Source of the DNA: Candidatus Yonathbacteria bacterium
Lineage (GTDB): Bacteria > Patescibacteriota > Minisyncoccia > Phycocordibacterales > JACNGX01
NCBI GenBank assembly: GCA_013334825.1
Contig: JAAXWR010000001.1
Location: 203,769 to 267,768 of the forward strand
DNA: 64,000 bases
Direction: 5' to 3'
The notes below the pieces were generated by a model. That model saw nothing but the letters and a program-made list of their open reading frames with translations. It was not told the DNA's origin and searched no databases. The position numbers and the translations under genes were made by a program. This document shows positions 8,983 through 63,839 of the stretch, in pieces (within the stretch, counting starts at the first letter, position 1; every line of letters begins with the position of its first letter).

Positions 8983-10185
8983 ATGCACAACAGAACATTT
9001 TCATATATCCCACAAAAAGGATTTGCCGCATTGTCATGGGGGCGCATCCTCTTGACGCTTGCCGAGACAATGGTTGGCATCTTTTTGCCGATTTTCTTGT
9101 ATGAATTGTTTGATAACAATATCTTTTTCGCACTGCTCTTTTTTGTGTTGATGCATGGCGTGTACGGTATTCTTGTGCCCGTGGGGGCAATGATACTCGA
9201 CAAATATGGGTCGCGTCTTCCACTTCTCGTGGGAGTATCACTTTCGGGTGCGTTCATCGGGTCGCTTTATGGCGTGCAGGCGTTTGCGGATGTGCGTGGC
9301 GTGTTTTTTCTTGCACTTGCTTTTGTGACGACTGTTGGTTTTCGCGTTTTCTTTTGGATGCCGTTTCATGTTGATTTTGCGACACATACAGATACAGCAA
9401 TACGTGGTAAGGAAGTTGGACTGATGGAAGCAGGGCTGACTATTGTTGGGACACTTGCACCACTTATCGCAGGATACCTTATCGCATGGTATGGATATGG
9501 CATGCTCTTTCTCGCATCGATTGGTGTTATCGTAGTAACATTTATACCATTTTTGTTTGTCCCCGAAAGAGATATTACCTTTTCATGGGGATATATTGGG
9601 TCGTTCAAGAAATTATGCACGCGTGAAAATAGAAATCTCGCGCTTTCCAGTGGTCTTATGGGAATAGAAAATGTTATTGGTGCTGTTGTGTGGCCACTCT
9701 TTATTTTCATGCTTCTTGAGGGTGATTATGCTCAGGTTGGGTTTATCTCTTCTCTCATTGTTATTGCCACGGTGGTCACAGAACTTTTTACTGGAGATTC
9801 ACTTGATCGATACTCAAAAAAAAGTGTATTGCGTTTCTGGACAGTTTTTTCAGCACTGGGATGGTTTATCAAAATTTTTGTCGCGACAGCATTTCAAATA
9901 TTTGCCGTCGGTGCGTATCATGGTATTGTGCGTTCGCTTGCGGGCGTTTCGTACGAAGCATTTTTTTATGAACTTGCTGCGGATGGGGGACAGTACGTAG
10001 ATGAATACACAGTTATTCGTGAAATGGCAATTCAATTTGCAAAAGTAATTGCGCTCCTCGTCGTCATGGTGATTATCCTCTTTTTCCATATTAAATGGGC
10101 ATTTCTCGTCGGACTCATGAGCGCGCTTGTTCTCAATGGTGTGCTCGCTATAAGTAGTAGGGAGAGGGAGGTAGGAAAGAGGTGA
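8983..10185 (+). CDS. MFS transporter
   Basis: 400 aa, ~12 TM. 3' end runs into repeat R1. Confidence 0.7.
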   Translation: MHNRTFSYIPQKGFAALSWGRILLTLAETMVGIFLPIFLYELFDNNIFFALLFFVLMHGVYGILVPVGAMILDKYGSRLPLLVGVSLSGAFIGSLYGVQAFADVRGVFFLALAFVTTVGFRVFFWMPFHVDFATHTDTAIRGKEVGLMEAGLTIVGTLAPLIAGYLIAWYGYGMLFLASIGVIVVTFIPFLFVPERDITFSWGYIGSFKKLCTRENRNLALSSGLMGIENVIGAVVWPLFIFMLLEGDYAQVGFISSLIVIATVVTELFTGDSLDRYSKKSVLRFWTVFSALGWFIKIFVATAFQIFAVGAYHGIVRSLAGVSYEAFFYELAADGGQYVDEYTVIREMAIQFAKVIALLVVMVIILFFHIKWAFLVGLMSALVLNGVLAISSREREVGKR

Positions 10186-10545
10186 TAGGGACGGGAGAAC
10201 ACTCGAATCAAGAATCACGAAGCACGAATCAAGAATTAAGGGTTACGAAGTACGAACTTATACGAACATACGAAACTGGACGGGATGAAGGGTTATGAAA
10301 TATGAACTTGTACGCCTGCCCCGCACCCTATGTGGTGCATGGTGTTGGGGAATATACGGAATGTACGAATACGACTTCTTTTCTTTTGTCGTTTACCGTT
10401 TATAGTTTTCGTCTTCATATTTCATATTTCTATTTTCGTATTTCATCGTCTATAGTTTTTTCTTTTTATAGTTTATCGTTTATAGTTTCTTCGTCATTCG
10501 TAGGTTCGTACGTATTCGTTATTCGTAACTTTTCTTGAAACTCGT
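10160..10545. repeat. mosaic intergenic repeat R1
   Basis: Shares modules with 30138-30640, 33455-33870, 61182-61320 (reverse complement) and 62640-63176: (a)ggaaataggtgagaggtgatagg, gaatcaagaattaagggttacgaagtacgaacttatacgaacatacgaa (34/34 identical at 62925), cctgccccgcaccctacgtggtgca, and tacgaatacgac...cgtcttcatatttcatatttctattttcgtatttcat. ORF 10302..10538 is a reading-frame artefact. Confidence 0.8.
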
Positions 10546-12424: not shown

Positions 12425-12477
12425 CGCGGACACGCGCGGAACAGACGCGGAAATTTGCTGAATGAGATATCACGCGT

Positions 12478-12505
12478 GGAGGGTCGCTCACGCGACCCCC
12501 TCCCG
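12478..12505 (+). terminator. hairpin after typA
   Basis: ggagggtcgctcacgcgaccccctcc. Confidence 0.5.
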
Positions 12506-12534
12506 TAATCTAGTCTCTCATATAACACAACCAT

Positions 12535-12566
12535 AGCGCGGGTTTTCCTTTTGGAAAACCCGCGCT
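12535..12566. terminator. perfect 32-nt palindrome/hairpin
   Basis: agcgcgggttttcc tttt ggaaaacccgcgct. Contains cgggttttcctttt, which recurs at 13321. Confidence 0.5.
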
Positions 12567-12637
12567 ATGCTCGTCTGTACAAAAAATATCACAGGATAAG
12601 CATTTTTTGATATGGTAGGGGAGAATCATAGAATAGA

Positions 12638-12666
12638 TTGACTTTTGTGTCAAAAGGTGATATAAT
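12638..12666 (+). promoter_or_regulatory. consensus sigma70-type promoter (TTGACT-17-TATAAT)
   Basis: ttgact tttgtgtcaaaaggtga tataat. The -35 box sits in the inverted repeat ttgac...gtcaa. Followed by the consensus SD aggagg 6 nt before the ATG at 12713. Confidence 0.7.
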
Positions 12667-12712
12667 TATACAAGGTTGATTCAAAAAAATAAATTTAAAC
12701 CGAGGAGGTTTT

Positions 12713-13276
12713 ATGTCCATTCAGTTTCGTTTCGCGCTCAAGAGTGAGGGTAACAACCCTTATCTCTCCATCTACGAAGAGCAGACTCCGGCAGAGGCGA
12801 CGGAACGTCTCGTCAACGCCGAGTTCTGCTATGGTTCCCGTGTCACGAAGGTGACTGATACCGTCCTGGTACTCAGGACAACGTATATGGGGCGCCATGA
12901 AATCGCCGTCTTCCAGGGACCGGCTGAGGAAATGAAAAAACTCGTCGCTCTGGCGACCATCTTCCCCAGGGCGATTGAGGTCTATCACGAGAGCGAGGAG
13001 TATATCGCAGCTCTTGCCGAGAAGGTCGAGGCCGCCGCCGGTCTTGTCTTCAAGGGTGTTCCGAAAGAGCTCGCCCTTCTCGTCCCTGTCAATTCCGAGG
13101 GGTGGCAAGTGCTTCAGAGGTCGCTTCTCTCCGTCTTCGGTGCCACCGAAGAGGAGATGAATCTTTGCGTCGCGCAGAAGATGGCACATAAGACCGTCTG
13201 TGCCATCTGCGAGATGGTGGAAGAAGGTATTTTCGCGTCTTTCACCGAAGCATTCGCCTACGCCAAGGCTTCCTGA
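12713..13276 (+). CDS. hypothetical acidic protein; high-GC, C/G-ending codon bias atypical for this window
   Basis: 187 aa. Consensus promoter and SD upstream, UUCG-tetraloop terminator downstream. No recognised family. Confidence 0.6.
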   Translation: MSIQFRFALKSEGNNPYLSIYEEQTPAEATERLVNAEFCYGSRVTKVTDTVLVLRTTYMGRHEIAVFQGPAEEMKKLVALATIFPRAIEVYHESEEYIAALAEKVEAAAGLVFKGVPKELALLVPVNSEGWQVLQRSLLSVFGATEEEMNLCVAQKMAHKTVCAICEMVEEGIFASFTEAFAYAKAS

Positions 13277-13304
13277 AGTTCTTTTTTAGGGTGACAGCCA
13301 CCCG

Positions 13305-13336
13305 CCCGCCGATTCGTCGGCGGGTTTTCCTTTTTT
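13305..13336 (+). terminator. intrinsic terminator (UUCG tetraloop hairpin + T-run)
   Basis: cccgccga ttcg tcggcggg ttttcctttttt. Shares the 14 nt cgggttttcctttt with 12538-12551. Confidence 0.7.
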
Positions 13337-13439
13337 GAGTTGGATATTGAGTCATTGAGGTATTGTTTGAACATTGTACATTGGGCATTATCAAACCGCT
13401 GGCGCATTGCTCAATTTTGTTGTATAGTAAAGCGCATCT

Positions 13440-17788: not shown

Positions 17789-18037
17789 CATAGTGTGTAT
17801 AGTATAGCAGAAAACGTGCATTATGGAACATAAACGAGTTCGTAGTTCGTAGTTCTTAGTTCGTAGAGTGAACTGGTGAGTTTGAAACATGTTATGTCCC
17901 TTGTTTGGTACGGGATTATCAGCATGTCATGAGCCCACATCGCTTGTATGCACCCCACGTGGTGGATGTTTACTTTATTATGTTGAATACCTGAATACTG
18001 TGGAGTGGAAAAACAAAAAAGCGCAGAGTATGCGCTT

Positions 18038-23421: not shown

Positions 23422-23532
23422 ATGTCTTGATCAATGAGAAAAATTTGTTCGCACATAGTGAAGTAATATGGGTATCATATGTATAAAAATGTAAACACAA
23501 TATTTTTTTATTCTTCAATTCTTTATTCTTAA

Positions 23533-25203
<1,671 letters not shown>

Positions 25204-27752: not shown

Positions 27753-27781
27753 TTGACAAAATATTTCTCTTGGTATATAAT
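27753..27781 (+). promoter_or_regulatory. perfect consensus sigma70 promoter (TTGACA-17-TATAAT) with no obvious protein-coding target
   Basis: ttgaca aaatatttctcttggta tataat. ~550 nt downstream before alaS contains only short or poor ORFs and several hairpins. Confidence 0.5.
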
Positions 27782-28358
27782 AGTAAAAGAAATTGAGTCT
27801 TGCCGTAAGGAATAGAAACACAATTCGGTATGATATTCCACTTGTTGGAATGTGCCCTTTTGTCTGGTCTTATGATTAAAGAGTCCAGAATGTTCGTATT
27901 CCTTACGCGCATCTTTTGCAATACTTGATATACCTTCTGTCGGGGTATCAAGATCATAGACAGAGATTTCTTCTAAAGACGCCAACGGTTTTTGGGGGAT
28001 ATGTAAAGGACAGTTGGTTCTCTTGCAATACGATTCGCGGTACGCAAGAGAAATGACAGCGATATACTTTGGGGTTGCACCTACCCCAAAGAAGAACTCA
28101 AAGGTGTTACCCCGGGTTTTATACTCGGGGTTATGTTATTTGCTTGCCCAGAAACGCTATATTGCATATACTGCATACCATAAGAGTTTATTATAAAAAG
28201 TATGTTGAAATGACGTGTGTTGTGTAGCACTTTTTTTTAATGTTAATATTTAATTTCCCCATTCTCGTCTACCCTAATACCCTATAAGCTATTTCCTAAC
28301 CTCCTCATGTACTTATATACTAACCTCCTAACATACTAACCTCCTAACCTCCTACCTT

Positions 28359-30137: not shown

Positions 30138-30640
30138 TTAACAAGAGGAGACAGGAAACGCAAGTGATAGAAAGAGAAAAAACAAGTGTGAGCATGGATA
30201 TGTTCACGCTTGTTTTTTGTCGTTCATCATTTCACCATGAGGATAGATCGTACTGAGTTACGAGATTTAAGTGTCGAAAGACAACAGAACGAGTTTCAAG
30301 TTGGCAGTTTCAAGTTTCAAGAACGCTTACGGATAACGAATACATACGCATGTACGAATACGACTCATTTTCTTTTATCGTTTATAGTTTTCGTCTTCAT
30401 ATTTCATATTTCTATTTTCTTATTTCATCGTCTACCGTTTTTCTTCGTCATTCGTATATTCCCAAGCACCATGCACCACGTAGGGTGCATGGCACGCTTG
30501 ATTCGAGTGTTCGTCCCTATAACCTATCACCTATAACCTCTTTCCTACATTCGTCCGTCCCTCTAACCTCTTTCCTAATCCCACCTTCTTTCCCCACGTA
30601 CGAGTAGTACAAAACGTATCATGTACGGTATACTATAGTT
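30138..30640. repeat. mosaic intergenic repeat R2
   Basis: Contains tacgaatacgactcattttcttttatcgtttatagttttcgtcttcatatttcatatttctatttt (as in R1) and pyrimidine modules cctataacctatcacctataacctctttcctac. ORFs 30210..30536 and 30350..30607 are artefacts. Confidence 0.8.
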
Positions 30641-30642
30641 AC

Positions 30643-31863
30643 ATGTCTCTCTTTCGTCATCATGTAAAACAAAAAGCACGTCTCATTCATGTGTATGACA
30701 TTGGGAGTGCTTCTGTTGGTGGTGCAGTAGTGCTTCTTGAGCATGGGAAGAAAGCTCGCATCATGTATACGGTTCGCCGCGATGTATTTATGCGAGAGAC
30801 TCCTGATGCGAAGCGTTTTCGTGACGAAATTCTCACCGCTCTTTCTGGTGTTGTTGAAGATATAGCAAAACATGCTCCAGCGCATATTCGTTTTACGAAA
30901 CATGCACTGCTACGTCCAGAGAAAGCTTTTTTTATGTTAGCGTCTCCCTGGTACGCGTCACAGACAAGACATGTGCATGTCTCATTTAAACGCCCGACAC
31001 GCATTCGCCAAATAGATCTTGAAGAACGAGCAGAACGAGAATATCAGGATTTTCTCAAATCTCCTGAGGTTCTTGCTTTGGGAGATACTTCTCATACGTT
31101 ATTTGATCGGCGTATTATTCAAGTATCTGTAAATGGTTATGAGACTTCTGTTCCTGAAGGGAAAGAAGCAACAACACTTGATATGAGTATTGTATTTTCT
31201 ATCATTCCTTCAGATGCTGCGACTCGTATGAAAGAAATATGTGAACGTGCTTTTTCTTCGGTGGAGATTGTATTTCAAACATTTTCACTTGCTACGTTTG
31301 ATATTGTGAGAAATAAAGAACCAAATCTTTCAGAATGTATGTTGCTCGATGTGTCAGGGGAAGTATCTGAAGCATCTTTTGTTCGAGAAGGAGTGTTGTG
31401 GGAGACGGTGTCATTTCCTGTTGGGAAACTTACGCTTGTGCGTCGTATCGCCGAACTTCTCGGGAGTACTCCCGATGAAGCATTATCGTCATTGCGTATG
31501 TATGCGGAAAATGGATTTTCTCGTGAAGAAAAAATGCGTATTGGAAAAGCAGTAGAAACAGCAGCGGAATCATGGATGCGTGCTTTGCGTCATGCTGTTT
31601 CAGTTTCTGTCCCTGAAGAACAAATGCCTTCATCTGTGCGCCTTGCGTCCGATGCCGATGTTCTCTCATGGCTGCGTAGTGTTTTGGAACATGAAGAAAT
31701 GTCTCCGCAGGCTGTCGATATGCTCTATGTTCATGATCTTTGCGATATGTCTTCTGGTATCACATATGATTCATTTCTTGTTGTTGGTTCTGCTTTTTCT
31801 GCGCGTATATGCAATGAAAACAATCCACATCGTTTTTCGCATACACAAGGACGACGCTCGTGA
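30643..31863 (+). CDS. divergent actin-like ATPase (FtsA/PilM-like, ASKHA fold)
   Basis: Phosphate-1-like IHVYDIGSASVGGAVV and phosphate-2/adenosine-like LLDVSGEVSEASFVREGVL...FPVGKLTLVRRIAELLG. 406 aa. Confidence 0.5.
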   Translation: MSLFRHHVKQKARLIHVYDIGSASVGGAVVLLEHGKKARIMYTVRRDVFMRETPDAKRFRDEILTALSGVVEDIAKHAPAHIRFTKHALLRPEKAFFMLASPWYASQTRHVHVSFKRPTRIRQIDLEERAEREYQDFLKSPEVLALGDTSHTLFDRRIIQVSVNGYETSVPEGKEATTLDMSIVFSIIPSDAATRMKEICERAFSSVEIVFQTFSLATFDIVRNKEPNLSECMLLDVSGEVSEASFVREGVLWETVSFPVGKLTLVRRIAELLGSTPDEALSSLRMYAENGFSREEKMRIGKAVETAAESWMRALRHAVSVSVPEEQMPSSVRLASDADVLSWLRSVLEHEEMSPQAVDMLYVHDLCDMSSGITYDSFLVVGSAFSARICNENNPHRFSHTQGRRS

Positions 31864-33452: not shown

Positions 33453-33454
33453 AT

Positions 33455-33870
33455 GTAGGAAATAGGTGAGAGGTGATAGGCACGAATGCTCGAATCAAGC
33501 GTGCCCTGCACCCTACATGGCGTGCTGTGCATCCTACGTGGTGCACAGTGCAGGGAATCACGAAGTACGAAGCAAGAATACGAAAGATGAATTAAGAAAT
33601 ATGAACGTAGGAAATAGGTGAGAGGTGATAGGTTATAGAGACGGACGAGATGAAAGGTTACGAAATACGAACTTGTACACCTGCCCCGTACCCTACGTGG
33701 CGTGCTGTGCATCCATGTGGCTTGCTGTGCATCCCACGTGGTGCACAGTGCAGGGTGCTGGGGAATCTACGAATGATATATAACACGTGTGGAAGAGACT
33801 TTTTATTCGTATATTCGTGCGTATTCGTTATTCGTAAGCACTCGTTATTCGTAAGCGTTCTCGTAACTCA
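33455..33870. repeat. mosaic intergenic repeat R3
   Basis: Two copies of gtaggaaataggtgagaggtgatagg and cc(c)tgcaccctacgtggcgtgctgtgcatcc...cacgtggtgcacagtgcaggg inverted repeats, plus ggttacgaaatacgaacttgtac. ORF 33146..33712(-) is an artefact. Confidence 0.8.
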
Positions 33871-33947
33871 GTAACGTCTGTCATCCCGAACATGATGTTA
33901 GGTATGGGTCCGAAGACGCCACTCTGTATTGTGGTATAAAAAAACAT

Positions 33948-34030
33948 CCCCCCGGCTAAGCACCGGGAGGGATGAAAGTGCGAGGTCCCCCTCCTCGCAC
34001 TGAGCTCCGCGGGAGCGGAGCGATTCAAAT
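33948..34030 (+). other. three consecutive GC-rich hairpins upstream of infA
   Basis: catccc-cccggctaagcaccggga-gggatg; agtgcgagg-tccccc-cctcgcact; gctccgc-ggga-gcggagc. Confidence 0.4.
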
Positions 34031-34492: not shown

Positions 34493-34533
34493 TATATTCA
34501 TCCTTTTCTTACTAACCTCCTCATTTACTATTT

Positions 34534-38040: not shown

Positions 38041-38126
38041 TCGGTTACGAAGTACGAACTCATACGAATACGTACTTCATTCATTTTTTTAATTTCCTAA
38101 TCTCCTAATATATTAATCTCCTTACT

Positions 38127-40043: not shown

Positions 40044-40278
40044 ATGCGTATTTCGCCCCCAAAACCCGTCTCGTAGGACTGAAGCGAAGGCTTCAAGAAC
40101 CATTGATTCGAATTAAGAATCAAGAATCATGAATTAAGAATGATGAAGTAAGGATGAGACGACGGCATCATGTGTTCATGGCTATAAGTATTTTGTTTGT
40201 ACGTATACTATTTTTATGCCCTTGTGGATACGCTTGTTTGATCCCAAGCCCTCATACTGTTAGAATGACTATATTAGG

Positions 40279-41268
40279 TTGTCTACTTTTTGTCTTATGA
40301 CTTTTACACAAAGAATGGAAAAAATACAAAAAGATTTCAATGTCAATGCAATTTATGCAAAGAATATTGTTTTGCGTATACAAGAGAAAAATGAGGAAAA
40401 TTTTTGGAAGCAAGTGAATATTGCAATAATGCAAAAGCCAAAACCGTTTGTAAAATGGGTTGGTGGGAAACGTCAACTACTTAAACAATTTCGAGATATG
40501 GGCCTGTACCCTCCCGTTGAGTTTAATCCCGAGAAGAACAGATATTTTGAACCTTTTGTTGGAGGTGGTGCAGTTTTTTTTGATTTATTGCCACAAAAAG
40601 CATTTCTTTCTGACATGAACAGTGAACTCATTACAACATATAACGTTATAAAGAATGATGTTGAAAAACTTATTATGTCTCTCAAGAAACATAAACATGA
40701 AAAAGAATATTATTATTCAATACGTGAGAAGGATCCTAGTACAATGACCGATGTGGCAGTCGCTTCAAGATTTATTTATCTAAATAGAACTGGATTTAAT
40801 GGAATGTATCGCGTGAATAAGTCTGGGAAATACAATGTTCCTTTTGGGAAAAACAAGAACCCACTTATTTGTGATGAGACGAATCTAAGAAGAGTATCAG
40901 AAACATTGAAGCATGTGGAAATTGCAAGAGACGATTATAAAAATGTTTTGAAAAAAGCAAAAAAAGGAGATTTTATTTATTTTGATCCCCCATATCATCC
41001 AGTGAACAAAACCGCAGCTTTTACTTCGTATACCCCTGACGGTTTTAGGGAAAAAGAACAAATCGAGTTGAGAGATACTTTTTTGAAACTTCACAAAAGA
41101 GGCTGTTTTGTTATGCTTTCAAACTCAGACGCACCGTTTATTAACAAGATATATTCTGAGGTAAAGAATGATGGAATAGCGATTCATAAAGTTCAAGCAG
41201 GAAGGGCTATTAATTCAAAAGGGAACAGACGAGGAAAGATTTTTGAGGTTTTAATTACTAATTATTAA
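40279..41268 (+). CDS. Dam-family DNA N6-adenine methyltransferase, DpnM/M.MboIA-like (GATC-type)
   Basis: KPFVKWVGGKRQLL, YFEPFVGGGAVFFDL, YLNRTGFNGMYRVN, FIYFDPPYHP motifs. Closely resembles S. pneumoniae DpnM by recall. Start may be at M-51 (40429). Low GC. Confidence 0.85.
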   Translation: MSTFCLMTFTQRMEKIQKDFNVNAIYAKNIVLRIQEKNEENFWKQVNIAIMQKPKPFVKWVGGKRQLLKQFRDMGLYPPVEFNPEKNRYFEPFVGGGAVFFDLLPQKAFLSDMNSELITTYNVIKNDVEKLIMSLKKHKHEKEYYYSIREKDPSTMTDVAVASRFIYLNRTGFNGMYRVNKSGKYNVPFGKNKNPLICDETNLRRVSETLKHVEIARDDYKNVLKKAKKGDFIYFDPPYHPVNKTAAFTSYTPDGFREKEQIELRDTFLKLHKRGCFVMLSNSDAPFINKIYSEVKNDGIAIHKVQAGRAINSKGNRRGKIFEVLITNY

Positions 41269-41281
41269 TCATCTAAAAATC

Positions 41282-43015
41282 ATGAATAATATAAAAAAAT
41301 TTATAGATACAAATCCCTACACGTATTCAACCCTTTGTGATAGATACAAAAGATTTTCTATGCCATTAAACCAGCGCCCTTACGCTTGGAAAATTTCAAA
41401 CATTTCCGAACTATGGAGTGCCATTCTTGAAAACGAAGAAGGTTATTTTGTAGGAAATCTCGTATGTCTAGATCCTTCCGATGAGAGTAATGGTACCCTG
41501 GTTGTTGTAGATGGCCAACAAAGGTTAACAACCATATCGCTTATACTTATTGCCATTAAAGATATTCTTATCGAATGCAATGATGGGACTAAAAAAACAA
41601 CCCAACTTATAAATTGGTTAACTAACAGTTTACTTTGGCAAGATCCCAAGACATACGAATATTTTCCAAGATTGATCCACAGTAAAGAAAATTTGCTTGA
41701 GGCGTATAAAAATATCTTAGAAAATGGAAACGAAATTCCAAAAAATATTGACGATAATCAAATGCGTTATTATTCGAATATTAGATATATAAAATCTCTC
41801 ATAAAGAAAGAAATTAAAGCAAAATCTGATGATCAGATTGAAAAGCTTATACAAAAGATTTTATCCCTACAGTTTATAGCGATTGTGGTAAATTCAGAAA
41901 ATGATATTTACGATTTGTTTGAAGGTTTAAACTCAACAGGGTTAGGTCTTTCCGTTGCTGATCTGTTAAAGAATTCAGTTCTAAAATTTGCCCGAAAAGG
42001 AAGAGCAAGAGAAGAAATAGAGGCGGATTGGATCCAAATGGAGTCATATTTTGAAGCAACAAAAACATCCCTGTTCCCTAAATTCCTAAGACATTACTAT
42101 ATTTCTGAGAATGGTCTTATTTCTTCTTCTCGACTTTTTAAAACTCTAAAGAAAGAAAAAATTGAGAATAAACAAACTCAAGAAGTTGTTGCGTTTGTGA
42201 AAGAGCTGTTGGAGAATGCGCAGATATATATGGGGTTAAGATTTGATGAATATGAAAGCAATCTTAACCTACTTGTTCGCGATAGGGAGAGTAAAAAGAT
42301 AATTAGAACTTTTGAATATGTAGGAAGTGTTGATCAAGTTTATGCGGTGTTGTTGGCTTTTTATAACAAAAAAAGGCATGACCCTGATTATAAACCGAGC
42401 TCTTTTAAGCGAGACATTCGTCAACTCCTTAAATTTGTTATATTGGCAAGATTTGTAAGTATCAACCCTTCGGAGTATGAAAAAATATTTGGTGATATGT
42501 GCGAAATATCCACAGAATATTCAGGGGTAAAATATGAAAAAGAGATAGGACAACATTTTAAGAAATTGTTTAATTTAGTTAATAAAAAAGATGAATTTGT
42601 GAGTAATTTCTCAAACGAAATAGAATATGGAAGAGATTCAAAACTCATAGAATATCTTTTGCAAGAAGTGATGCGAGAATATTCAAAAGAAGATCGCGGA
42701 ATAACAGTATTGAACCCAAATATCGAGCATATTTTACCAAGATCTCCAAAAAAATGGGGATTGGATAAAGAAGATATAGGTTCTTATGTTAATAAAATAG
42801 GCAATCTCACAATTCTTCATGATCTAGACAATAATGATGCCGGGAATGAAACTTTTGAAGAAAAGATGAAGAAAGTTTATTCTGTTTCGAAATTTAGATT
42901 TAATAATGATATAAGTAAATATGAAGAAGTTTTTGTCGAGAATCCTTCACTGGCAATTGAACAGAGAGGGAAAGATATTTCCACTTTTGTTTTTAGTTTT
43001 TTAAAGTCAATCTAG
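41282..43015 (+). CDS. GmrSD-family protein: N-terminal DUF262 (ParB-like, DGQQR) + C-terminal DUF1524 (His-Me/HNH-like) domains
   Basis: VVVDGQQRLTTISLIL near the N-terminus; NIEHILPRSP...IGNLTILHDLDNN near the C-terminus. 577 aa. Confidence 0.75.
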   Translation: MNNIKKFIDTNPYTYSTLCDRYKRFSMPLNQRPYAWKISNISELWSAILENEEGYFVGNLVCLDPSDESNGTLVVVDGQQRLTTISLILIAIKDILIECNDGTKKTTQLINWLTNSLLWQDPKTYEYFPRLIHSKENLLEAYKNILENGNEIPKNIDDNQMRYYSNIRYIKSLIKKEIKAKSDDQIEKLIQKILSLQFIAIVVNSENDIYDLFEGLNSTGLGLSVADLLKNSVLKFARKGRAREEIEADWIQMESYFEATKTSLFPKFLRHYYISENGLISSSRLFKTLKKEKIENKQTQEVVAFVKELLENAQIYMGLRFDEYESNLNLLVRDRESKKIIRTFEYVGSVDQVYAVLLAFYNKKRHDPDYKPSSFKRDIRQLLKFVILARFVSINPSEYEKIFGDMCEISTEYSGVKYEKEIGQHFKKLFNLVNKKDEFVSNFSNEIEYGRDSKLIEYLLQEVMREYSKEDRGITVLNPNIEHILPRSPKKWGLDKEDIGSYVNKIGNLTILHDLDNNDAGNETFEEKMKKVYSVSKFRFNNDISKYEEVFVENPSLAIEQRGKDISTFVFSFLKSI

Positions 43016-43058
43016 TTCCTGGTTCTCAAATTTATTAACAACATATCACATTAACTCT

Positions 43059-43925
43059 ATGGAAAATAGTAAGTTTTTAGTCTTTAAAAATACACGAAAA
43101 AACTCAATAAAGACTTGGGAGTATTTTGTGAATTGGGATAAGGTATTCAAGAATAAGAGAGAAGTGGAAATAGCTCTTAATAAAATGAATTATCTTCTCG
43201 GAAAAGAAAATTTAAAAGAAGAGTTTTTCTTATTATTGAAATCAGAACCAGATATTATAAAAACTTTCCCCATTCTTTTGGCGGTAAGAGAGCAAAAATT
43301 AGAGATTTATGATAAAAAAGAAAAGACATCGAGGTTTTTTGATTTTTCTAGTATTGATAATATGGAAGATCCAGAAGAATATTTTGAATTTTTTGAAAAT
43401 ACCGGTCTTACCAATATTTTTAAAAAAGATGGTGTAAAAAACCTTGTCGATTATGTTATGGGCGTAGAAGTTGGTCTTGAAAGTAATGGGAGAAAAAATC
43501 GAGGAGGTCAACTCATGGAGGTGATAACTGAAGAGTATATAAAGCAGTATTCAGAAGCAAATCATTTTTCTTATTTAGCACAAGCCACTGCGAAAGGTAT
43601 TTATGAAAGATGGGGTATAAATATTTCTGTAGATAAGTCAGAAAGAAGTTTTGATTTTGCTGTATATAATCCATTAAAAAATAAAATAAAATTGTTCGAA
43701 GTAAACTTTTATAATGGAGGAGGTTCAAAATTAAAAGCGGTTTGTGGAGAATTTAAAGGTCTTTTTGATTATCTAAAAGCACAAGGTGTTGAATTTGTTT
43801 GGATTACTGACGGTATGGGTTGGAATAATACGACAAGACCCCTTGAGGAGGTATATAACCATAACGATAATATCTTCAATCTATCAATGCTCGAAGAAGG
43901 GGTCCTCAACTCTCTTAAATGGTAG
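43059..43925 (+). CDS. type II restriction endonuclease, DpnII/MboI family (GATC)
   Basis: 288 aa, same length as R.DpnII. Motifs NLVDYVMGVEVGLESNGRKNRGG, EVNFYNGGGSKL, FVWITDGMGW match R.DpnII by recall. Confidence 0.75.
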   Translation: MENSKFLVFKNTRKNSIKTWEYFVNWDKVFKNKREVEIALNKMNYLLGKENLKEEFFLLLKSEPDIIKTFPILLAVREQKLEIYDKKEKTSRFFDFSSIDNMEDPEEYFEFFENTGLTNIFKKDGVKNLVDYVMGVEVGLESNGRKNRGGQLMEVITEEYIKQYSEANHFSYLAQATAKGIYERWGINISVDKSERSFDFAVYNPLKNKIKLFEVNFYNGGGSKLKAVCGEFKGLFDYLKAQGVEFVWITDGMGWNNTTRPLEEVYNHNDNIFNLSMLEEGVLNSLKW

Positions 43926-43937
43926 TATATTTTTTGT

Positions 43938-44690
43938 ATGAAATTTGGTCCAGACACATTTGATTTAGAATGTACAACCGTATGGGCTTTTCCTCGACGT
44001 GGTAATTGGGCTACACATACGTCAGATTGGCGTGGGAATTGGTCTCCTGAAGTGGTGCGCAATCTCATTTTACGATATTCCGAAGAGGGAGATATTTTAC
44101 TCGATCCAATGATTGGTGGGGGAACAACAGCAATCGAAGCAAAGATTTTGAATAGAAACATTATTTGTTCAGATGTGAATGATATCGCTATTGAACGGAC
44201 GAAGAATTGTCTTGTGTTTGATGTAGAGAATAATTCTTGGCAAAAGGTCTTGAAAAGAGACGCTAGAGATCTTAATAAAGCAAAAAATGAGAGTGTTGAT
44301 TTTATTCTCACTCATCCTCCATATGCCGATATTATAAAATATAGCGATGGTAAGATAGAAGAAGATCTTTCAAATATTCATAATATAGATTCCTTCGTCG
44401 ATGAAATGGAAAAAGTGGCAACGGAGCTTCATAGGGTTTTGAAGAAAGACAAATACTGCGCAATTTTAATCGGAGATACTCGTAGAAATAAAATGTATCA
44501 GCCTTTAGCTTTTAAGGTAATGGATAGATTTTTGAAAACAGGTTTTCAATTGAAAGAAGATATTATCAAACGACAATTTAATTGTCAGGCGACAGGTTTT
44601 TGGGTGAATAAATCAAAAGAAAATAATTTTCTCCTTATTATGCACGAACATCTCTTTGTGTTTCAAAAAGTTGGTGGAGACGCTCATTGA
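43938..44690 (+). CDS. second DNA methyltransferase (N6-adenine/N4-cytosine, ParB-like methylase family) of the R-M operon
   Basis: AdoMet motif I LDPMIGGGTTAIEA and motif IV ILTHPPYADI. Its last 7 codons and stop lie inside repeat copy 1. Confidence 0.75.
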   Translation: MKFGPDTFDLECTTVWAFPRRGNWATHTSDWRGNWSPEVVRNLILRYSEEGDILLDPMIGGGTTAIEAKILNRNIICSDVNDIAIERTKNCLVFDVENNSWQKVLKRDARDLNKAKNESVDFILTHPPYADIIKYSDGKIEEDLSNIHNIDSFVDEMEKVATELHRVLKKDKYCAILIGDTRRNKMYQPLAFKVMDRFLKTGFQLKEDIIKRQFNCQATGFWVNKSKENNFLLIMHEHLFVFQKVGGDAH

Positions 44691-44835
44691 CGACGAGTTT
44701 TTCTGGAATGAAGACACGGGGCACTATGAGCCGAATGATTTTACGGATTGCTTTGAGCATACCGGCAACGTGAGGTGCGCGCAGTGCGGGGAAGCGTGGA
44801 CCGGATTGTAGAGCAAACAAAAAAGCGCCGTCTAG
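44669..44835 (+). repeat. Zn-ribbon-encoding repeat, copy 1 (fused to methylase 3' end; no own start codon)
   Basis: ~95% identical to copy 3. Encodes ...LVETLIDDEFFWNEDTGHYEPNDFTDCFEHTGNVRCAQCGEAWTGL* (frame 44671..44811), then hairpin aaaaaagcgccgtctaggcgcttt. Confidence 0.8.
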
Positions 44836-45378: not shown

Positions 45379-45523
45379 CAAGTTGGTGGAGACGCTCATT
45401 GACGACGAGTTTTTCTGGAATGAAGAGACTGGGCATTATGAACCGAACAAGTTTACGGATTGTTTTGAGCATACTGGCAACGTGAGGTGCACGCAGTGCG
45501 GGGAAGCGTGGACAGGCGCTTGA
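45362..45523 (+). CDS. small Zn-ribbon protein (repeat copy 2), possibly decaying
   Basis: MCGALRKLVETLIDDEFFWNEETGHYEPNKFTDCFEHTGNVRCTQCGEAWTGA. Differences from copies 1 and 3 are mostly synonymous. The longer in-frame 124-aa ORF from 45149 overlaps the upstream minus gene and looks non-protein-like. Confidence 0.3.
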   Translation: MCGALRKLVETLIDDEFFWNEETGHYEPNKFTDCFEHTGNVRCTQCGEAWTGA

Positions 45524-45667
45524 AAAGGAGTCTGCAGAAGAGTTGAAATCTCTCGAAAAGTCCTTGTGTGTCTCGGATGTTGACATATATTATTTTTTAT
45601 GCTACTCTAAAACGAGTAAAAGGAAATTACAGTTTTCATTAATATTCGAATCATTCAAGGAGGCAAC

Positions 45668-46454: not shown

Positions 46455-46640
46455 AAGTTGGTGGAGACGCTCATTGAGGACGAGTTTTTCTGGAATGAAG
46501 ACACGGGGCACTATGAGCCGAATAAGTTTACGGATTGTTTTGAGCATACCGGCAATGTGTGGTGCGCGCAGTGCGGGGAAGCGTGGACCGGATTGTAGAG
46601 CAAACAAAAAAGCGCCCTGCGGGGCGCTTTTGATTACGAG
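46455..46640 (+). pseudogene. Zn-ribbon repeat copy 3; the reading frame has a stop just upstream and no start codon (upstream ATG at 46400 is in another frame)
   Basis: (taa)KIKERHACQLCGAERKLVETLIEDEFFWNEDTGHYEPNKFTDCFEHTGNVWCAQCGEAWTGL*, then terminator aaaagcgccctgcggggcgctttt. Confidence 0.5.
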
Positions 46641-50656: not shown

Positions 50657-50689
50657 GAGAAGTTGTCAGTTATTGGATTCTTTACGAAG

Positions 50690-50830
50690 TACGAACAATA
50701 TTTTTTAAATCCTAATATCTAAATCCTAAACAATATAAAAATTAAAAATTCAAATGTCCAAAATGTTGTGTGTTAGTTTTTGAATTTTGGTAATTGAAAT
50801 TTGTTTAGAATTTAGGATTTAGTGTTTAGT
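50690..50830. repeat. AT-rich imperfect long inverted repeat upstream of dnaK
   Basis: taaatcctaaacaa...aaaattcaaa...tttgaatttt...ttgtttagaatttaggattta. aaatcctaa-type words repeated. Confidence 0.5.
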
Positions 50831-50900
50831 ATTTATCATGGGACATTGTGATTTATACATCAGATTCTTCATTAATAATCTCTAATTTTTACATACATAT

Positions 50901-59737: not shown

Positions 59738-59786
59738 TTCTTCTTTCCTCACATTTATTATTCTTCATTCTTAATTTATATTCTCC

Positions 59787-61181
59787 ATGACTCGTATTTC
59801 CATTAGTAAACTCCATGCATATATCGGGCAAGAAGTTACTCTTGCTGGTTGGGTACATGTGCGTCGTGATCATGGCAAACTTATTTTTATAGATTTGCGT
59901 GACGCAACGGGTATTGTACAGATGGTTGCACTTCCCAATCATGCGGATGCGCATGCGGTTGCATCATTGGTGCGTTCGGAATGGGTCGTCGAAGTGTCTG
60001 GACTTGTGAATAAGCGTCCAGAAAAAATGGTGAATGCGGATGAAGAAAATGGTGATATTGAGATTGAACTCTTAGGGTTAACAGTGCTTAATGAAGCACA
60101 GACACCGCCGTTTGAACTTACGAATGATACATCGGGCATTGATGAGAACATCCGTCTCAAGTATCGATATCTTGATTTGCGTACTGCGCGAATGCAACGA
60201 AATATTCGTACACGAAGCGCGTTTGTGTCATCGTGTCGTCATTATCTTTTTGATAACGATTTTGTCGAAGTGGAGACACCGCTTCTCACTGAGTCAACGC
60301 CAGAAGGGTCGCGCGACTTTGTTGTGCCATCGCGTCTCAATGCAGGGCATTTTTACGCATTACCCCAATCTCCTCAGCAGTATAAACAATTGCTTATGAC
60401 AGGGGGTATGGAAAAATATTTTCAAATTGCGCGTGCCGTGCGCGATGAAGATTTGCGTGCTGATCGTGGCTTTGAACATACACAGGTAGATATTGAAGCA
60501 TCGTTTGTTTCGGAAGAGGATATACGTTCGCTCGTCGAAGATATGATTATCAAATCGGCTGAATCAGCAGGGAAGACTATCAGACAAAAACCGTTTCCAC
60601 GTATGACCTATGCGGAAGCGATGCAGACGTATGGAGGGGATAAATTTGATATGCGCACAGATGAAGAAAAAGAAGCAGGCATACTTGCGTTCGCATGGGT
60701 TGTTGATTTTCCTATGTTTGAGAAGACTGAAGAAGGAACATGGACGTTTACACACAATCCATTTTCTATGCCAAAATTAGAACATCTTGAGTTACTCATG
60801 AAAGGGGAACGCATTGATGAGATACTTGCGCAACAATATGATCTAGTATGTAATGGATATGAATGTGGTGGAGGAAGTGTTCGTGCGCACAAGCCAGAAA
60901 TTCTTCGCGCAACATACAAGATTATGGGATATACCGATGAAGAAATCGAAGCGAGCGTAGGACATATGCTTGAAGCGTTTTCTTATGGAGCTCCTCCCCA
61001 TGGAGGTATTGCTCTTGGTGTTGAACGTATGACCATGATACTTACGGGAGAAACAGAACTTCGTGAGGTGCAAGCATTTCCCATGACACGCGGAGGACAG
61101 ACCGCAGTGATGAATGCACCGAAACCTCTTACAAATAAACAGTTGGATGAGTTAGGAATAGAAGTGAAAAAGAAAAAATAG
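59787..61181 (+). CDS. aspS: aspartate--tRNA ligase, bacterial-type sequence but lacking the GAD insertion domain (464 aa)
   Basis: YALPQSPQQYKQLLM, QIARAVRDEDLRADRGFEHTQVDIE, GGGSVRAH, and C-terminal motif 3 GIALGVERM. YGGDKFDMR runs straight into WVVDFPMFE with no GAD domain. Confidence 0.85.
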   Translation: MTRISISKLHAYIGQEVTLAGWVHVRRDHGKLIFIDLRDATGIVQMVALPNHADAHAVASLVRSEWVVEVSGLVNKRPEKMVNADEENGDIEIELLGLTVLNEAQTPPFELTNDTSGIDENIRLKYRYLDLRTARMQRNIRTRSAFVSSCRHYLFDNDFVEVETPLLTESTPEGSRDFVVPSRLNAGHFYALPQSPQQYKQLLMTGGMEKYFQIARAVRDEDLRADRGFEHTQVDIEASFVSEEDIRSLVEDMIIKSAESAGKTIRQKPFPRMTYAEAMQTYGGDKFDMRTDEEKEAGILAFAWVVDFPMFEKTEEGTWTFTHNPFSMPKLEHLELLMKGERIDEILAQQYDLVCNGYECGGGSVRAHKPEILRATYKIMGYTDEEIEASVGHMLEAFSYGAPPHGGIALGVERMTMILTGETELREVQAFPMTRGGQTAVMNAPKPLTNKQLDELGIEVKKKK

Positions 61182-61320
61182 AAATGAAAAACTATAAACG
61201 ATGAAATACGAAAATAGAAATATGAAATATGAAGACGAAAACTATAAATGGTAAACGATGAAATACGAAAATAGAAATATGAAATATGAAGACGAAAACT
61301 ATAAACGGTAAAATAAAAGC
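61182..61320. repeat. mosaic repeat R4: two tandem ~62-bp units, reverse complement of a module in R1/R2
   Basis: atgaaatacgaaaatagaaatatgaaatatgaagacgaaaactataaa[ct]ggtaaacg x2. Confidence 0.8.
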
Positions 61321-61321
61321 G

Positions 61322-61370
61322 GGGTTTATGCTCCGCTTTTTTATATACAAAAAGAGCCCGTGAGGGCTCA
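61322..61370. terminator. back-to-back terminators for aspS (+) and 61368..61820 (-)
   Basis: aaagcggggtttatgctccgctttttt and gagccctcacgggctctttttg (minus strand). Confidence 0.6.
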
Positions 61371-62639: not shown

Positions 62640-63176
62640 GGTTAAATTGTGCTTCTTTTTCCTTTGCCAAGTCTTTCCATTGTTCTCATGTTGAACTTTT
62701 TACATTGGCGAATCATCAGTGAAGGAAGTGTGCACCAAAGTACCCACACCTACCGTTGCCATCCAGCTCCACTTTTACATATAACGAGTATGCTGAATTA
62801 AAATTAATCTGTTCGTTCATTTTTAGTTTGTCATTCTGGGCTTGACCCAGAATCCACGTCTGAGGTGTTATATATTATTACACGACTACGTGGATCTAAA
62901 ATCATGTTCATGATGATAAAGATTGGTTACGAAGTACGAACTTATACGAACATACGAATACTACTGAACACGAACAACTATATTGGTGAGTTTATGTTCG
63001 TACTCATTCATATTTCGTAACCCTTAATTCTTGATTCGGGTTTCCGTCCTATAACCCATCTCCTCTAACCTCTCTCCTACATTCGTCCGTCTTTATAACC
63101 TATCACCTCTAACCTCTTTCCTCTATCCGTTCGTCCCTATAACCTATTTCCTCTCACCTATCTCCTAAAATATGGT
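62640..63176. repeat. mosaic intergenic repeat R5 splitting scpA from scpB
   Basis: Contains ggttacgaagtacgaacttatacgaacatacgaa (identical to 10242-10275), an internal inverted repeat gttacgaagtacgaac...gttcgtactc...ttcgtaac, and the pyrimidine modules cctataacccatctcctctaacctctctcctac... directly upstream of the scpB ATG. Confidence 0.8.
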
Positions 63177-63839
63177 ATGATAGTATCCATGGAAATGGAA
63201 CAAGAGTCTATTGACGGGCTTATTGAGGCGGTACTCTTCTTTAAAGGAGAGCCGGTTTCTCTTGCTGAACTTGCGAAAACAACACATATGACGCTTACTG
63301 AGATAGAATCTGCGGTGGGTGTGTTGTCTACCCGACTTTCTGGTGGTATTCGTTTGATGCGACAAGATGACATGGTGATGCTTGCAACTGCACCAGAATA
63401 CGCTGTGCATATTGAGTCGTTGATAAAAGAAGAACTTTCAAAAGACCTTGGAAAGGCAGGAGCAGAGACTCTCGCCGTTGTTTTGTATATGGGACCGGTA
63501 ACGCGCGCACGTATTGATCATATTCGTGGAGTTAATTCCACATTTATCTTGCGTAATCTTGCAGCGCGTGGACTTGTTGAAAAAATGCCGCATCCCACCG
63601 ATAGTCGAAGTATGCTCTATCGACCGACACTCGCACTTCTCGCACATCTTGGTGTGTCTGATGCGACACAATTACCGGAGTATCGTACAATTCGTGATGA
63701 AATCGGTGTATTTGAACAACGCGCAGCATCACACATACAGAATGACTCTGAAGAATCACAACACACTCTTACGGATGATGAGGGGCATGGAGATAATGAC
63801 GTATTAGATATGCAGAGTGATATGTATGATGATGAATAG
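63177..63839 (+). CDS. scpB: segregation and condensation protein B
   Basis: IEAVLFFKGEPVSLAELAK... tandem winged-helix; acidic C-terminus. Confidence 0.8.
   Translation: MIVSMEMEQESIDGLIEAVLFFKGEPVSLAELAKTTHMTLTEIESAVGVLSTRLSGGIRLMRQDDMVMLATAPEYAVHIESLIKEELSKDLGKAGAETLAVVLYMGPVTRARIDHIRGVNSTFILRNLAARGLVEKMPHPTDSRSMLYRPTLALLAHLGVSDATQLPEYRTIRDEIGVFEQRAASHIQNDSEESQHTLTDDEGHGDNDVLDMQSDMYDDE

Follow-up and report, generated by a model that had tools for sequence, protein, structure and literature searches.

Intergenic heptanucleotide repeat blocks in a Candidatus Yonathbacteria genome and their relatives in other Patescibacteria

A 64-kb stretch of a 450-kb contig from Candidatus Yonathbacteria bacterium (GenBank assembly GCA_013334825.1, contig JAAXWR010000001.1; hereafter the window) carries blocks of repeats in the spacers between its genes, and these blocks are the subject of the present analysis. 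Every block is a single long degenerate heptanucleotide array whose purine-strand unit is roughly GAR-N-N-A-N. The repeat family is real, multi-copy and common to several Patescibacteria genomes. Sister genomes that keep the same order of genes differ by its gain and loss, and in closer strains it is rearranged by insertions and deletions (indels) of modules and by inversion of the module M6 described below. On balance we lean towards regarding the blocks as copies or fragments of a lineage-specific, non-autonomous, palindromic mosaic repeat family, similar to the bacterial interspersed mosaic elements (BIMEs) and repetitive extragenic palindromes (REPs) and to short tandemly repeated repetitive (STRR) sequences. 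An earlier reading of the window, made from the sequence alone (the sequence-only reading), had proposed a dispersed, mosaic family present in both orientations, and the modules it named were indeed found at their sites, far above chance. It missed the 7-nt periodicity and the fixed purine-to-pyrimidine palindromic grammar, which are the defining features of the family.

Architecture of the blocks

When the purine strand is written in rows of seven, the 7-nt register runs unbroken across three modules, M1 (AGGnnAn, e.g. AGGAAAG AGGTGAT), M2 (GAAnCAn, as in CTCGAATCAAGAATTAAG) and M3, a 34-mer of TACGAAn heptamers in which four TACGAAS units form direct repeats spaced 7, 10 and 8 bp. A block is laid out as a purine-rich 5' arm (M1, M2, M3) followed by its reverse complement (rc) in mirror order (M3rc, M2rc, M1rc). 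The centre is of three kinds, namely the GC hairpin M4 (CCCTGCAYC-CTACGT-GGTGCAGGG), which is single or forms 20-21-nt tandem or nested units, the ~38-nt module M8 (CACRRACT...AGTAGTA), or an array of 57-nt units, M6, bracketed by the short inverted repeats GTACGAATACGAC / GTCATTCGTA. The inverted M3/M3rc arms reach 34 bp (e.g. 62925-62958 / 62993-63025, and L026 6220-6325, the L-numbered labels denoting stretches of related contigs) and enclose M8, M4 or M6 as variable cargo. The five main blocks, none of them assigned to a strand, are as follows.

Block A, 10150..10545, between an MFS gene and typA: M1 10160-10199; M2 10200-10240; M3 10241-10274; M3' 10275-10312; M4 hairpin 10315-10350; M6 array in pyrimidine orientation 10376-10495; M3rc-like 10496-10529; M2rc-like 10530-10545.
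Block B, 30270..30600, flanked by the terminator of alaS (30178-30219) and the promoter of the following gene: M2/M3-like purine arm 30291-30364; M6 array 30365-30449; reverse complement of M4 30461-30497; M2rc 30498-30510; M1rc arrays 30509-30600.
Block C, 33453..33870, 3' of a 509-aa gene and 5' of the rpsM-rpoA cluster: M1 33454-33480; M2 split by a nested/duplicated GC hairpin 33499-33555; GAA/TACGAA heptamers 33556-33602; M1 33603-33650; M3 33656-33680; triple 20-21-nt GC hairpin 33680-33763; TTCGTAA (M3rc) array 33795-33870.
Block D, 61168..61343, from the aspS stop codon: two tandem 57-nt M6 units in purine orientation, 61182-61238 and 61239-61295, and a partial one to 61312; intrinsic-terminator-like hairpin 61316-61343.
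Block E, 62925..63170, between scpA and scpB: M3 62925-62958; M8 centre 62959-62992; M3rc 62993-63025; M2rc 63026-63041; three 44-nt M1rc units 63042-63170, followed by the extended -10 box of scpB, TGGTATGAT, at 63173-63181.

To describe the grammar we combined the window with ~370 kb of related contigs. Purine-type modules came first in 18 of the 19 mixed-orientation clusters and last in 1/19. Independently of gene orientation, purine clusters lay close to the gene on their left, at a median distance of 30 nt, and pyrimidine clusters close to the one on their right, at a median of 34.5 nt. In co-directional spacers the clusters showed no orientation bias relative to transcription (20 sense versus 16 antisense). 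A purine-then-pyrimidine order that is the same on both strands is expected from a palindromic master design.

With regard to copy number, the 34-mer M3 (GGTTACGAAGTACGAACTTATACGAACATACGAA) is 100% identical between 10241-10274 and 62925-62958; the sequence-only reading was correct about this identity and placed the start of the first copy one position too far, at 10242. Relatives of M3 lie at 38043, 33656, 50680, 10291 and 63006 (minus strand), and its 17-nt core, with at most 3 mismatches, has 7 matches in the window against 0.12 expected. The modules occur in 4-7 copies each (0-0.12 expected). The unit of ~60 bp reported as a tandem pair at 61182 is the 57-nt M6 unit of block D (tandem x2.1 over 61195-61312, 98% matches); it has reverse-complement copies at 10384-10474 and 30368-30440, and its 24-nt core is found in four exact copies (0.00 expected). 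Likewise, AGGAAATAGGTGAGAGGTGATAGG occurs exactly at 33457 and 33609, with reverse-complement relatives at 30523, 63099 and 63143, giving five matches over both strands against 0.00 expected. The inverted repeat read as ccctgcac corresponds to the CCCTGCAC...GTGCAGGG GC hairpins at 33499-33555 and 33680-33763, with relatives at 10315-10350 and 30461-30497.

A lag-7 autocorrelation scan of the window marked 1640 nt in 11 blocks, compared with a mean of ~68 nt (range 0-273) in 10 shuffles. Ten of the 11 are repeat-bearing spacers, so that the 7-nt periodicity is essentially limited to spacers; the eleventh (41228-41291) is a weak signal at a gene junction that holds no repeat block. Tandem Repeats Finder reported period-7 and period-14 arrays with 64-91% matches, which are degenerate mixtures of heptamers. 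In all, ~3% of the window is mosaic repeat DNA. The shorter relatives that the sequence-only reading had listed are also real (17837, 23495, 38043, 40103 and 59746), and the small blocks at 17837, 23495, 40103, 50698 and 59746 share the 7-nt periodicity of the large ones. These smaller elements are the following.

17837..17866, plus strand: (AGTTCGT)x4 array, 5' of the promoter that serves a minus-strand MFS gene, with an M4-like hairpin close by (17945-17968).
23495..23545, plus strand: ATTCTTn heptamer array filling the groES-groEL spacer up to the groEL ATG at 23546.
38043..38126, plus strand: M3 copy (38043-38076) and pyrimidine-rich heptamers, filling the rplM-rpsI spacer in the ribosomal-protein operon.
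40103..40160, plus strand: M2-type array of GAATCAA/GAATTAA, preceded by a terminator and followed closely by a low-GC island with a DpnII-type restriction-modification set.
50680..50835, no strand assigned: M3 fragment (50680-50696) and M10, in the grpE-dnaK spacer; M10 is a ~140-nt palindrome of TAAATCC / GGATTTA heptamers with arms 50706-50763 and 50778-50835.
59746..59786, plus strand: ATTCTTn-type pyrimidine heptamers filling the 49-nt spacer before aspS.
62830..62854, plus strand: M9, a GC hairpin (GTCATTCTGGGCTTGACCCAGAATC) in the unique-looking left part of the scpA-scpB spacer.

Low-complexity AT-rich spacers, or mis-assembly, might mimic such repeats, since metagenome assemblies may collapse or chimerise repeats and some short relatives are weak (e.g. 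41228-41291). This explanation is extremely improbable given that exact 24-34-mers occur 2-4 times where none is expected, that the modules are present in independent assemblies from several samples and sources (NCBI metagenome-assembled genomes (MAGs), the Joint Genome Institute (JGI) and Logan), and that the shuffles contain almost no 7-nt-periodic DNA. Clustered regularly interspaced short palindromic repeats (CRISPR), which the sequence-only reading had already dismissed, were rejected as well, there being no regular repeat-spacer register or periodicity and no cas genes among the proteins scanned. The spurious open reading frames (ORFs) it attributed to the repeats do occur, e.g. 30210-30536, which has no Pfam match.

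Copies and turnover in related genomes

The modules are not confined to the window, so that the refutation proposed by the sequence-only reading itself does not apply. A scan of metagenome contigs with a 27-nt M3 pattern returned 45 stretches from several JGI samples, with up to 5 per contig and about 1 per 5-10 kb; the relatives were seen as 8-20-kb contig pieces, in which gene calls are simple ORF calls. Only modules are in common with the window in 35 of the 45, and M3 sits on unrelated contigs from several lake metagenomes. The M1-M2-M3 arm of ~110 nt is conserved in 14 distinct contexts, and positions 28-34 of M3 (ATACGAA), which fall outside the search pattern, are kept in 40 of 42 distinct copies. 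M3 is also present in two other Patescibacteria MAGs, H32-bin006_1 (92-94% identity over 34-38 nt) and Parcubacteria NIOZ-UU136 (96% over 27-28 nt), which have no other DNA similarity to the window. In both it occupies spacers beside gene starts, with M3rc 0-30 nt upstream of start codons, and NIOZ-UU136 has the same layout of purine heptamers, GC hairpin and TTCGTA heptamers. A 17-mer scan of the GTDB representatives, which do not include the source genome, gave 18 matches, a chance-level number (~70 expected by our own estimate); three are real and belong to two Patescibacteria MAGs. M3 had no match in viral contigs, and BLAST of blocks A and E matched no known insertion sequence, phage or plasmid. 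Short-read assemblies of this organism from Logan break at the repeats, as seen from L001 and L002, which start at 62929 and 62925; a 98% relative of aspS sits on a contig of 1620 nt.

The sister genome GCA_013335575.1 (TypA 91% identical in amino acids; fourfold degenerate (4-fold) sites saturated at 44% identity) keeps the gene order around all five main blocks, yet blocks A-E are absent from it, so that a presence/absence difference is seen for each. It also bears out the claim that the repeats part syntenic genes, since the same neighbours are separated there by short spacers of plain terminators and promoters:

alaS to next gene: 145 nt in the sister genome, 505 nt in the window.
scpA to scpB: 91 nt in the sister genome, 546 nt in the window.
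After aspS: 30 nt in the sister genome, 186 nt in the window.

No block precedes typA or follows the homologue of the 509-aa gene there. The promoter-proximal sequence of the sister scpA-scpB spacer, TTATTTCTTATCACCT...AAAATGTGGTATCAT, lines up, on visual inspection, with the final M1rc heptamers and the -10 box of the window, and part of this array may therefore have grown from local sequence. M10 does have a copy in the sister genome, at another locus, between an MFS gene and RNase J; the two copies are ~75% identical (117 of 155 window positions invariant; mean column identity 85% as given by the tool).

In closer strains (typA 91% identical in nucleotides, ~70% at 4-fold sites) block A occurs as different haplotypes, each assembled in 2-3 independent samples. 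In one (L049/L028) the orientation of M6 is reversed and M2 contains a GC hairpin of 28 nt, and another (L058/L057/L042) is without M4 and M6 and has extra M1 units. The inverted repeats flanking M6 are shorter than typical k-mers, which argues that the inversion is real and not an assembly artefact. In the alignable columns of block A, M3 is identical at 34/34 positions and M1 and M2-M3 at 87-89%, exceeding the ~70% of 4-fold sites in the adjacent typA. Point substitutions are thus rare in the modules and module-scale changes frequent.

This conservation bears on the main rival to our reading, in which M3, and perhaps other heptamer classes, would be arrays of DNA-binding sites for a conserved nucleoid-associated protein or global regulator and the blocks modular cis-regulatory regions; the sequence-only reading had itself offered modular regulatory-site arrays. 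The TACGAAC-N3-TACGAAC pair in M3 is presumably akin to the 10-11-bp direct repeats to which response regulators of the OmpR/PhoB type bind. A binding site would account for an M3 that is 100% identical in strains only 70% identical at 4-fold sites and 92-96% identical in unrelated MAGs that share no coding DNA similarity (H32-bin006_1 and NIOZ-UU136), for the position of M3rc just before start codons in these MAGs, and for ATACGAA being kept outside the search pattern, while the sense/antisense counts fit a site that acts at the DNA level. It fits less well with a sister genome that has the same operons and lacks the blocks entirely, or with modules whose number, order and orientation vary among close strains at one locus. 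Moreover, the blocks lie alike after stop codons, between terminator and promoter and inside operons, at no fixed distance from promoters, a density of ~1 per 5-10 kb is high for a specific regulator, and no candidate binding protein was identified. We consider this alternative possible, though rather unlikely.

A second alternative concerns mobility, the sequence-only reading having called the elements REP/MITE-like. If they were classical miniature inverted-repeat transposable elements (MITEs), M3/M3rc would serve as their terminal inverted repeats, and an enzyme encoded by an element, possibly the product of a PD-(D/E)XK gene (PDDEXK_3, GxxExxY), would mobilise them in trans. The 34-bp inverted repeats do surround variable cargo (M8, M4, M6), M3 borders unique DNA with a sharp edge at many loci, and M10 is at different loci in two genomes. 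In addition, two inverted M3 copies separated by 468 nt flank a small PDDEXK_3 gene that lies between tatD and what seems to be a fragment of a tRNA synthetase (L022 2679-3173, equal to L038 4960-5454). This is the only gene bracketed by an M3 pair, and at one locus only. A 69%-identical homologue stands by tandem M3 copies in L006 (7743-8000), an unrelated Patescibacteria MAG, again beside tatD. This link is thus found at two genomic places among ~45 loci, both beside tatD, and may be conserved synteny; the gene is apparently frameshifted in L022, and the window encodes none. No target-site duplication is discernible, viral contigs gave 0 matches, and the M1 arrays at the outer ends of blocks, unlike the ends of transposons, are of variable length and pass into stop codons and promoters. 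We therefore keep the PDDEXK_3 nuclease as a low-probability lead only, and a true MITE mechanism appears highly unlikely. Of the combined label, the REP-like part stood in the form of a GC hairpin with compensatory changes; the MITE part gained no support, as no readable target-site duplication was found, nor any transposase or REP-associated tyrosine transposase (RAYT) among the window proteins scanned.

Hairpins, leaders and neighbouring features

M4 is a short imperfect palindrome kept as a hairpin, with a 9-bp stem and a 6-nt loop. Pairing is kept in 91.5% of cells over 17 variants, and four of the nine pairs show compensatory changes (CCCT/AGGG, CTGT/ACAG, CCCC/GGGG, CCAT/ATGG), giving a covariation score matched by 0 of 500 shuffles. 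A T-G pair, which pairs on one strand only, is present in 8/17 variants. The flanks read GTACGC(C/T)TG... and ...GGGGAA(T/C)ATACG, and CTAC/GTAG is in the loop and not at the end. Folding of whole blocks against shuffles gave z-scores of -3.7 (C), -2.2 (E, as a long M3-M8-M3rc hairpin), -1.1 (A) and -1.1 (B); whole-block hairpins were dropped as a main point because of the weak scores for A and B. Rfam gave no match at gathering score over the window, and at E <= 1 the blocks gave only chance hairpins, e.g. a mir-674-like match to the GC hairpin. M8 was also considered as a portable sigma-70 promoter, because some copies look by eye like TTGAAA-17-TAGTAT, and rejected, as the window copy does not; a consensus promoter scan found none in blocks A or E.

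The leaders have an unusual composition. In the 30 nt before 43 start codons G makes up 8.3%, compared with 23.9% genome-wide, position -1 is T in 70%, and Shine-Dalgarno motifs are nearly absent (GGAG in 2/43); 28329-28358, 34504-34533 and 38097-38126 are examples. The pyrimidine arm beside a start codon is G-poor on the sense strand and so matches this genome-wide leader property.

Taken together, hairpins and leaders raise the alternative of a role at the RNA level. The arms and GC hairpins would act as stem-loops that terminate, process (via RNase III) or stabilise transcripts, or the pyrimidine heptamers of leaders would be landing pads, in 7-nt steps, for a cold-shock-type single-strand binder, which could support Shine-Dalgarno-independent initiation. 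Bacillus subtilis CspB reportedly binds repeats of T-rich heptamers, each heptamer taking up one protein molecule (PMC4679880), and STRR heptamers have been suggested to increase transcript stability (PMC2670836). The G-poor, Shine-Dalgarno-free leaders, the position of blocks within normally co-transcribed operons (groES-groEL, grpE-dnaK, rplM-rpsI and scpA-scpB), the compensatory changes and T-G pair of M4, and the z-scores of block C and of the M3-M8-M3rc hairpin are in line with such a role. Blocks A and B nevertheless fold no better than shuffles, block B, between a terminator and a leaderless promoter, is probably poorly transcribed, the two orientations are about equally frequent relative to transcription, no Rfam family matches even at E <= 1, and the sister genome dispenses with the blocks. 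Furthermore, a DNA palindrome may acquire compensatory changes through template-switch correction as well, in which case no RNA function is involved. An RNA-level role is accordingly unlikely, and less likely than protein binding to M3.

Besides the alanyl- and aspartyl-tRNA synthetases AlaS (592 aa) and AspS (464 aa), both short, the window encodes TypA, ScpA/B, GroES/EL, GrpE-DnaK-DnaJ and an rpsM-rpoA-rplQ-rplM-rpsI cluster; no tRNA gene or transfer-messenger RNA reached threshold in it. Its TypA matches, at 100% identity, a protein encoded on a 450,058-bp contig of a Candidatus Yonathbacteria MAG. Several further observations concern the surroundings of the blocks. The M1 array of block A (10150-10185) provides the upstream MFS gene with its final 11 codons (ISSREREVGKR) and its TGA stop (10183-10185), and in related strains this gene likewise reads through into the array. 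The nearest relative found for the 406-aa gene beside block B is only 40% identical. Just 3' of block C, 33939-34026 weakly matches a part (positions 116-204) of the model for bacterial RNase P class A, with 17 bits where the gathering score is 100 and E = 0.004, which is probably due to chance; no other RNase P RNA was located in the window. The M9 hairpin (GTCATTCYGGGCTTGACCCRGAATC) recurs beside M3 in contigs L032, L037, L045, L054 and L065, and we take it to resemble the widespread GTCATTC...GAATC palindromic intergenic repeats of other bacteria.

Extended -10 boxes, TGGTATGAT and GGTATACT, stand 7-8 nt before the ATG at 63173-63191 and 30622-30645 of the window and at L073 8776-8796, an arrangement that is kept in the sister genome and suggests leaderless mRNAs; scpB probably starts at the ATG at 63189 and not at 63177, as called by the ORF finder. 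CCTCC/CTCCT motifs (TAACCTCCT), of anti-Shine-Dalgarno sense, occur 7-19 nt before the ATG of alaS, rpsM, rpsI and an ABC ATPase. An array directly 5' of alaS (28296-28354, CTAACCTC) has a period of 8 nt, not 7 nt, with a 16-nt unit present twice and perfectly, and is made up of the CCTCC-type leader motif. Further 5' of alaS is a non-coding region of ~350 nt (27760-28140; L071 5150-5490) with its own TTGACA...TATATAAT promoter and a terminator-like hairpin, which by eye seems to be conserved in the sister genome and has no Rfam match at E <= 1; possibly it represents a structured RNA that is undescribed or has diverged strongly.

The restriction-modification island (40279-44690, 31-35% GC) comprises a D12 (Dam-like) methylase, a GmrSD nuclease, a DpnII endonuclease and an N6/N4 methylase. 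A 162-nt segment with a terminator hairpin at its end is present three times, 81-96% identical (44668-44829, 45380-45541 and 46455-46616), and is apparently the common 3' end of paralogous small ORFs that have no Pfam match. Finally, the spacer from typA to an FAD-oxidoreductase gene (12425-13439) is a hotspot of gene content among close strains (compare L058 403-7486 and L066 11791-14537), with an insertion of ~7 kb in one strain and different small genes in each genome.

Nature of the family and its possible origin

The blocks share features with several known systems. BOX elements of Streptococcus pneumoniae (boxA-boxB(n)-boxC) are modular and intergenic, have variable numbers of an internal unit, predicted folds and no transposase, and vary among strains, and the same is seen here; they differ in having three fixed modules in one order and neither a 7-nt periodicity nor purine/pyrimidine arm symmetry. 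Foldback (FB) elements of Drosophila have long inverted arms of short tandem sub-repeats around a variable centre. This likeness is one of structure and implies no homology, FB elements being eukaryotic, kilobase-scale and in some copies equipped with a transposase. The blocks have terminal inverted repeats in common with MITEs, and no transposase-encoding relative with the same ends was found in the window or in the viral, phage or plasmid searches.

With BIMEs, REPs and REPINs (REP doublets forming hairpins) the blocks share an intergenic location, high copy number and a mosaic of short motifs in both orientations (PMC2817692, PMC3116915, PMC3733652), as well as an imperfect GC palindrome of 24-35 nt with compensatory changes, variability among strains and placement after stop codons and in operons. 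REP palindromes carry a GTAG or CGTC tetranucleotide tag at one end (PMC3733652), whereas the M4 hairpin has no such terminal tag. The blocks are mainly AT-rich heptamer arrays and not REP hairpins; their hairpins are single or in 20-21-nt direct tandem or nested units instead of inverted doublets at fixed spacing, and in contrast to BIMEs, with which the mosaic of conserved motifs is shared, the hairpin is a minor, non-alternating component whose orientation follows its arm. No RAYT was seen among the window proteins, and the phylum, Patescibacteria, is another. A further partial parallel is the small dispersed repeat of cyanobacteria, described as a hairpin unit of ~28 nt inserted in another repeat (Elhai et al. 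2008, cited in PMC3116915 and PMC2884548), as the hairpin GCGTGCCCTGCATCCTACGTGGTGCAGG lies inside M2 in some copies and is missing from the orthologous copy. We liken the two by this description only, and M2 variants with and without the hairpin may here swap by gene conversion and not by insertion.

Mixed intergenic heptamer assemblages have been described in Cyanobacteria, Beggiatoaceae and Bacteroidetes, together with a proposal of slippage in 7-nt steps for heptanucleotide repeats at large (PMC4679880), and the 7-bp STRRs of cyanobacteria can form hairpins in intergenic and promoter regions (PMC2670836). These STRRs, the mixed assemblages and the TAACTGA repeats of Beggiatoaceae, Microcystis and some Bacteroidetes resemble our blocks in their 7-nt unit, their intergenic position, often directly before start codons, the several heptamer types per spacer and the capacity for hairpins, their absence from orthologous spacers of close relatives, the breaks they cause in assemblies and their lack of an established function (PMC4679880, PMC2670836). 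The heptamers themselves differ (GAAnCAn, TACGAAn and AGGnnAn here; CCCCAGT, TAACTGA and others there), and the present arrays are degenerate instead of near-perfect tandem copies of one heptamer, have long inverted arms with a fixed nesting order, and comprise composite modules of 34-110 nt that move among loci and genomes.

Under the reading that we prefer, a palindromic mosaic repeat family without its own means of transposition, the arrays would grow as strands slip and mispair in steps of 7 nt and as higher-order units (20-21, 44 and 57 nt) duplicate in tandem, and M6 would flip by recombination between GTACGAATACGAC and GTCATTCGTA. Spread and homogenisation among loci would proceed by ectopic recombination or gene conversion, or by a trans-acting enzyme, and homogenisation would explain why base substitutions are few relative to 4-fold sites and indels frequent. 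The repeats would be tolerated spacer DNA, persisting only where the arm beside a start codon is G-poor on the sense strand. Blocks inside operons are probably transcribed, and in groES-groEL, grpE-dnaK, rplM-rpsI and scpA-scpB the added stem-loops might secondarily serve, as with REPs and BIMEs, in 3'-end protection, termination or processing; the effects known from REPs (mRNA 3' protection, termination, protein binding) could plausibly arise here as by-products. Since the sister genome does without the blocks, they can hardly be essential.

A number of points weigh against this reading. Comparison of ~50 window proteins with NCBIfam or Pfam turned up neither a transposase nor a RAYT, the Pfam lists of L066-L073 contain no RAYT, and no target-site duplication is readable in 42 distinct M3 contexts. 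Flanks of the sharp M3 edges end in ...ATT / ...GTT, which the opposite end does not repeat, and the empty sites of the sister genome are too diverged to align. With no mobilising enzyme or insertion signature, the movement of modules between loci is itself inferred. The conservation of M3 and its slow substitution could equally be explained by purifying selection on a functional site, e.g. one that binds a protein, and whole blocks fold only modestly better than shuffles, a weak effect. In addition, the genome-wide copy number is extrapolated from the window, and short-read metagenome contigs may be chimeric at repeats, so that the strain differences are perhaps in part assembly artefacts.

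A bolder proposal would be that the heptamer arrays form a functional nucleic-acid code, read in 7-nt steps, on single or double strands, by a conserved host protein with M3 as its high-affinity core, and coupled to the G-depleted, Shine-Dalgarno-free leaders, the CCTCC-like motifs in the place of a Shine-Dalgarno sequence and the extended -10 leaderless promoters. We regard this as improbable; if true, the mosaic blocks would be a fast-evolving cis-regulatory layer shared horizontally among Parcubacteria, with a possible mechanistic kinship to the heptamer repeats of Cyanobacteria and Beggiatoaceae.

The literature searched contained nothing on intergenic repeats in Patescibacteria, nor on Shine-Dalgarno usage or G-poor, Shine-Dalgarno-free leaders in this phylum. 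Patescibacteria are regarded as extremely streamlined, and fast-turnover repeats, even within conserved operons, are mildly unexpected in them. In practical terms, the family fragments short-read assemblies, makes spurious ORFs and extends real ones, and it could be used as a strain marker. With these findings a further phylum joins Cyanobacteria, Beggiatoaceae and some Bacteroidetes as a host of mixed intergenic heptamer repeats, here with a grammar of nested inverted arms and an invertible centre. The 34-nt core conserved across genomes offers a starting point from which to trace the protein or process that operates in steps of 7 nt.

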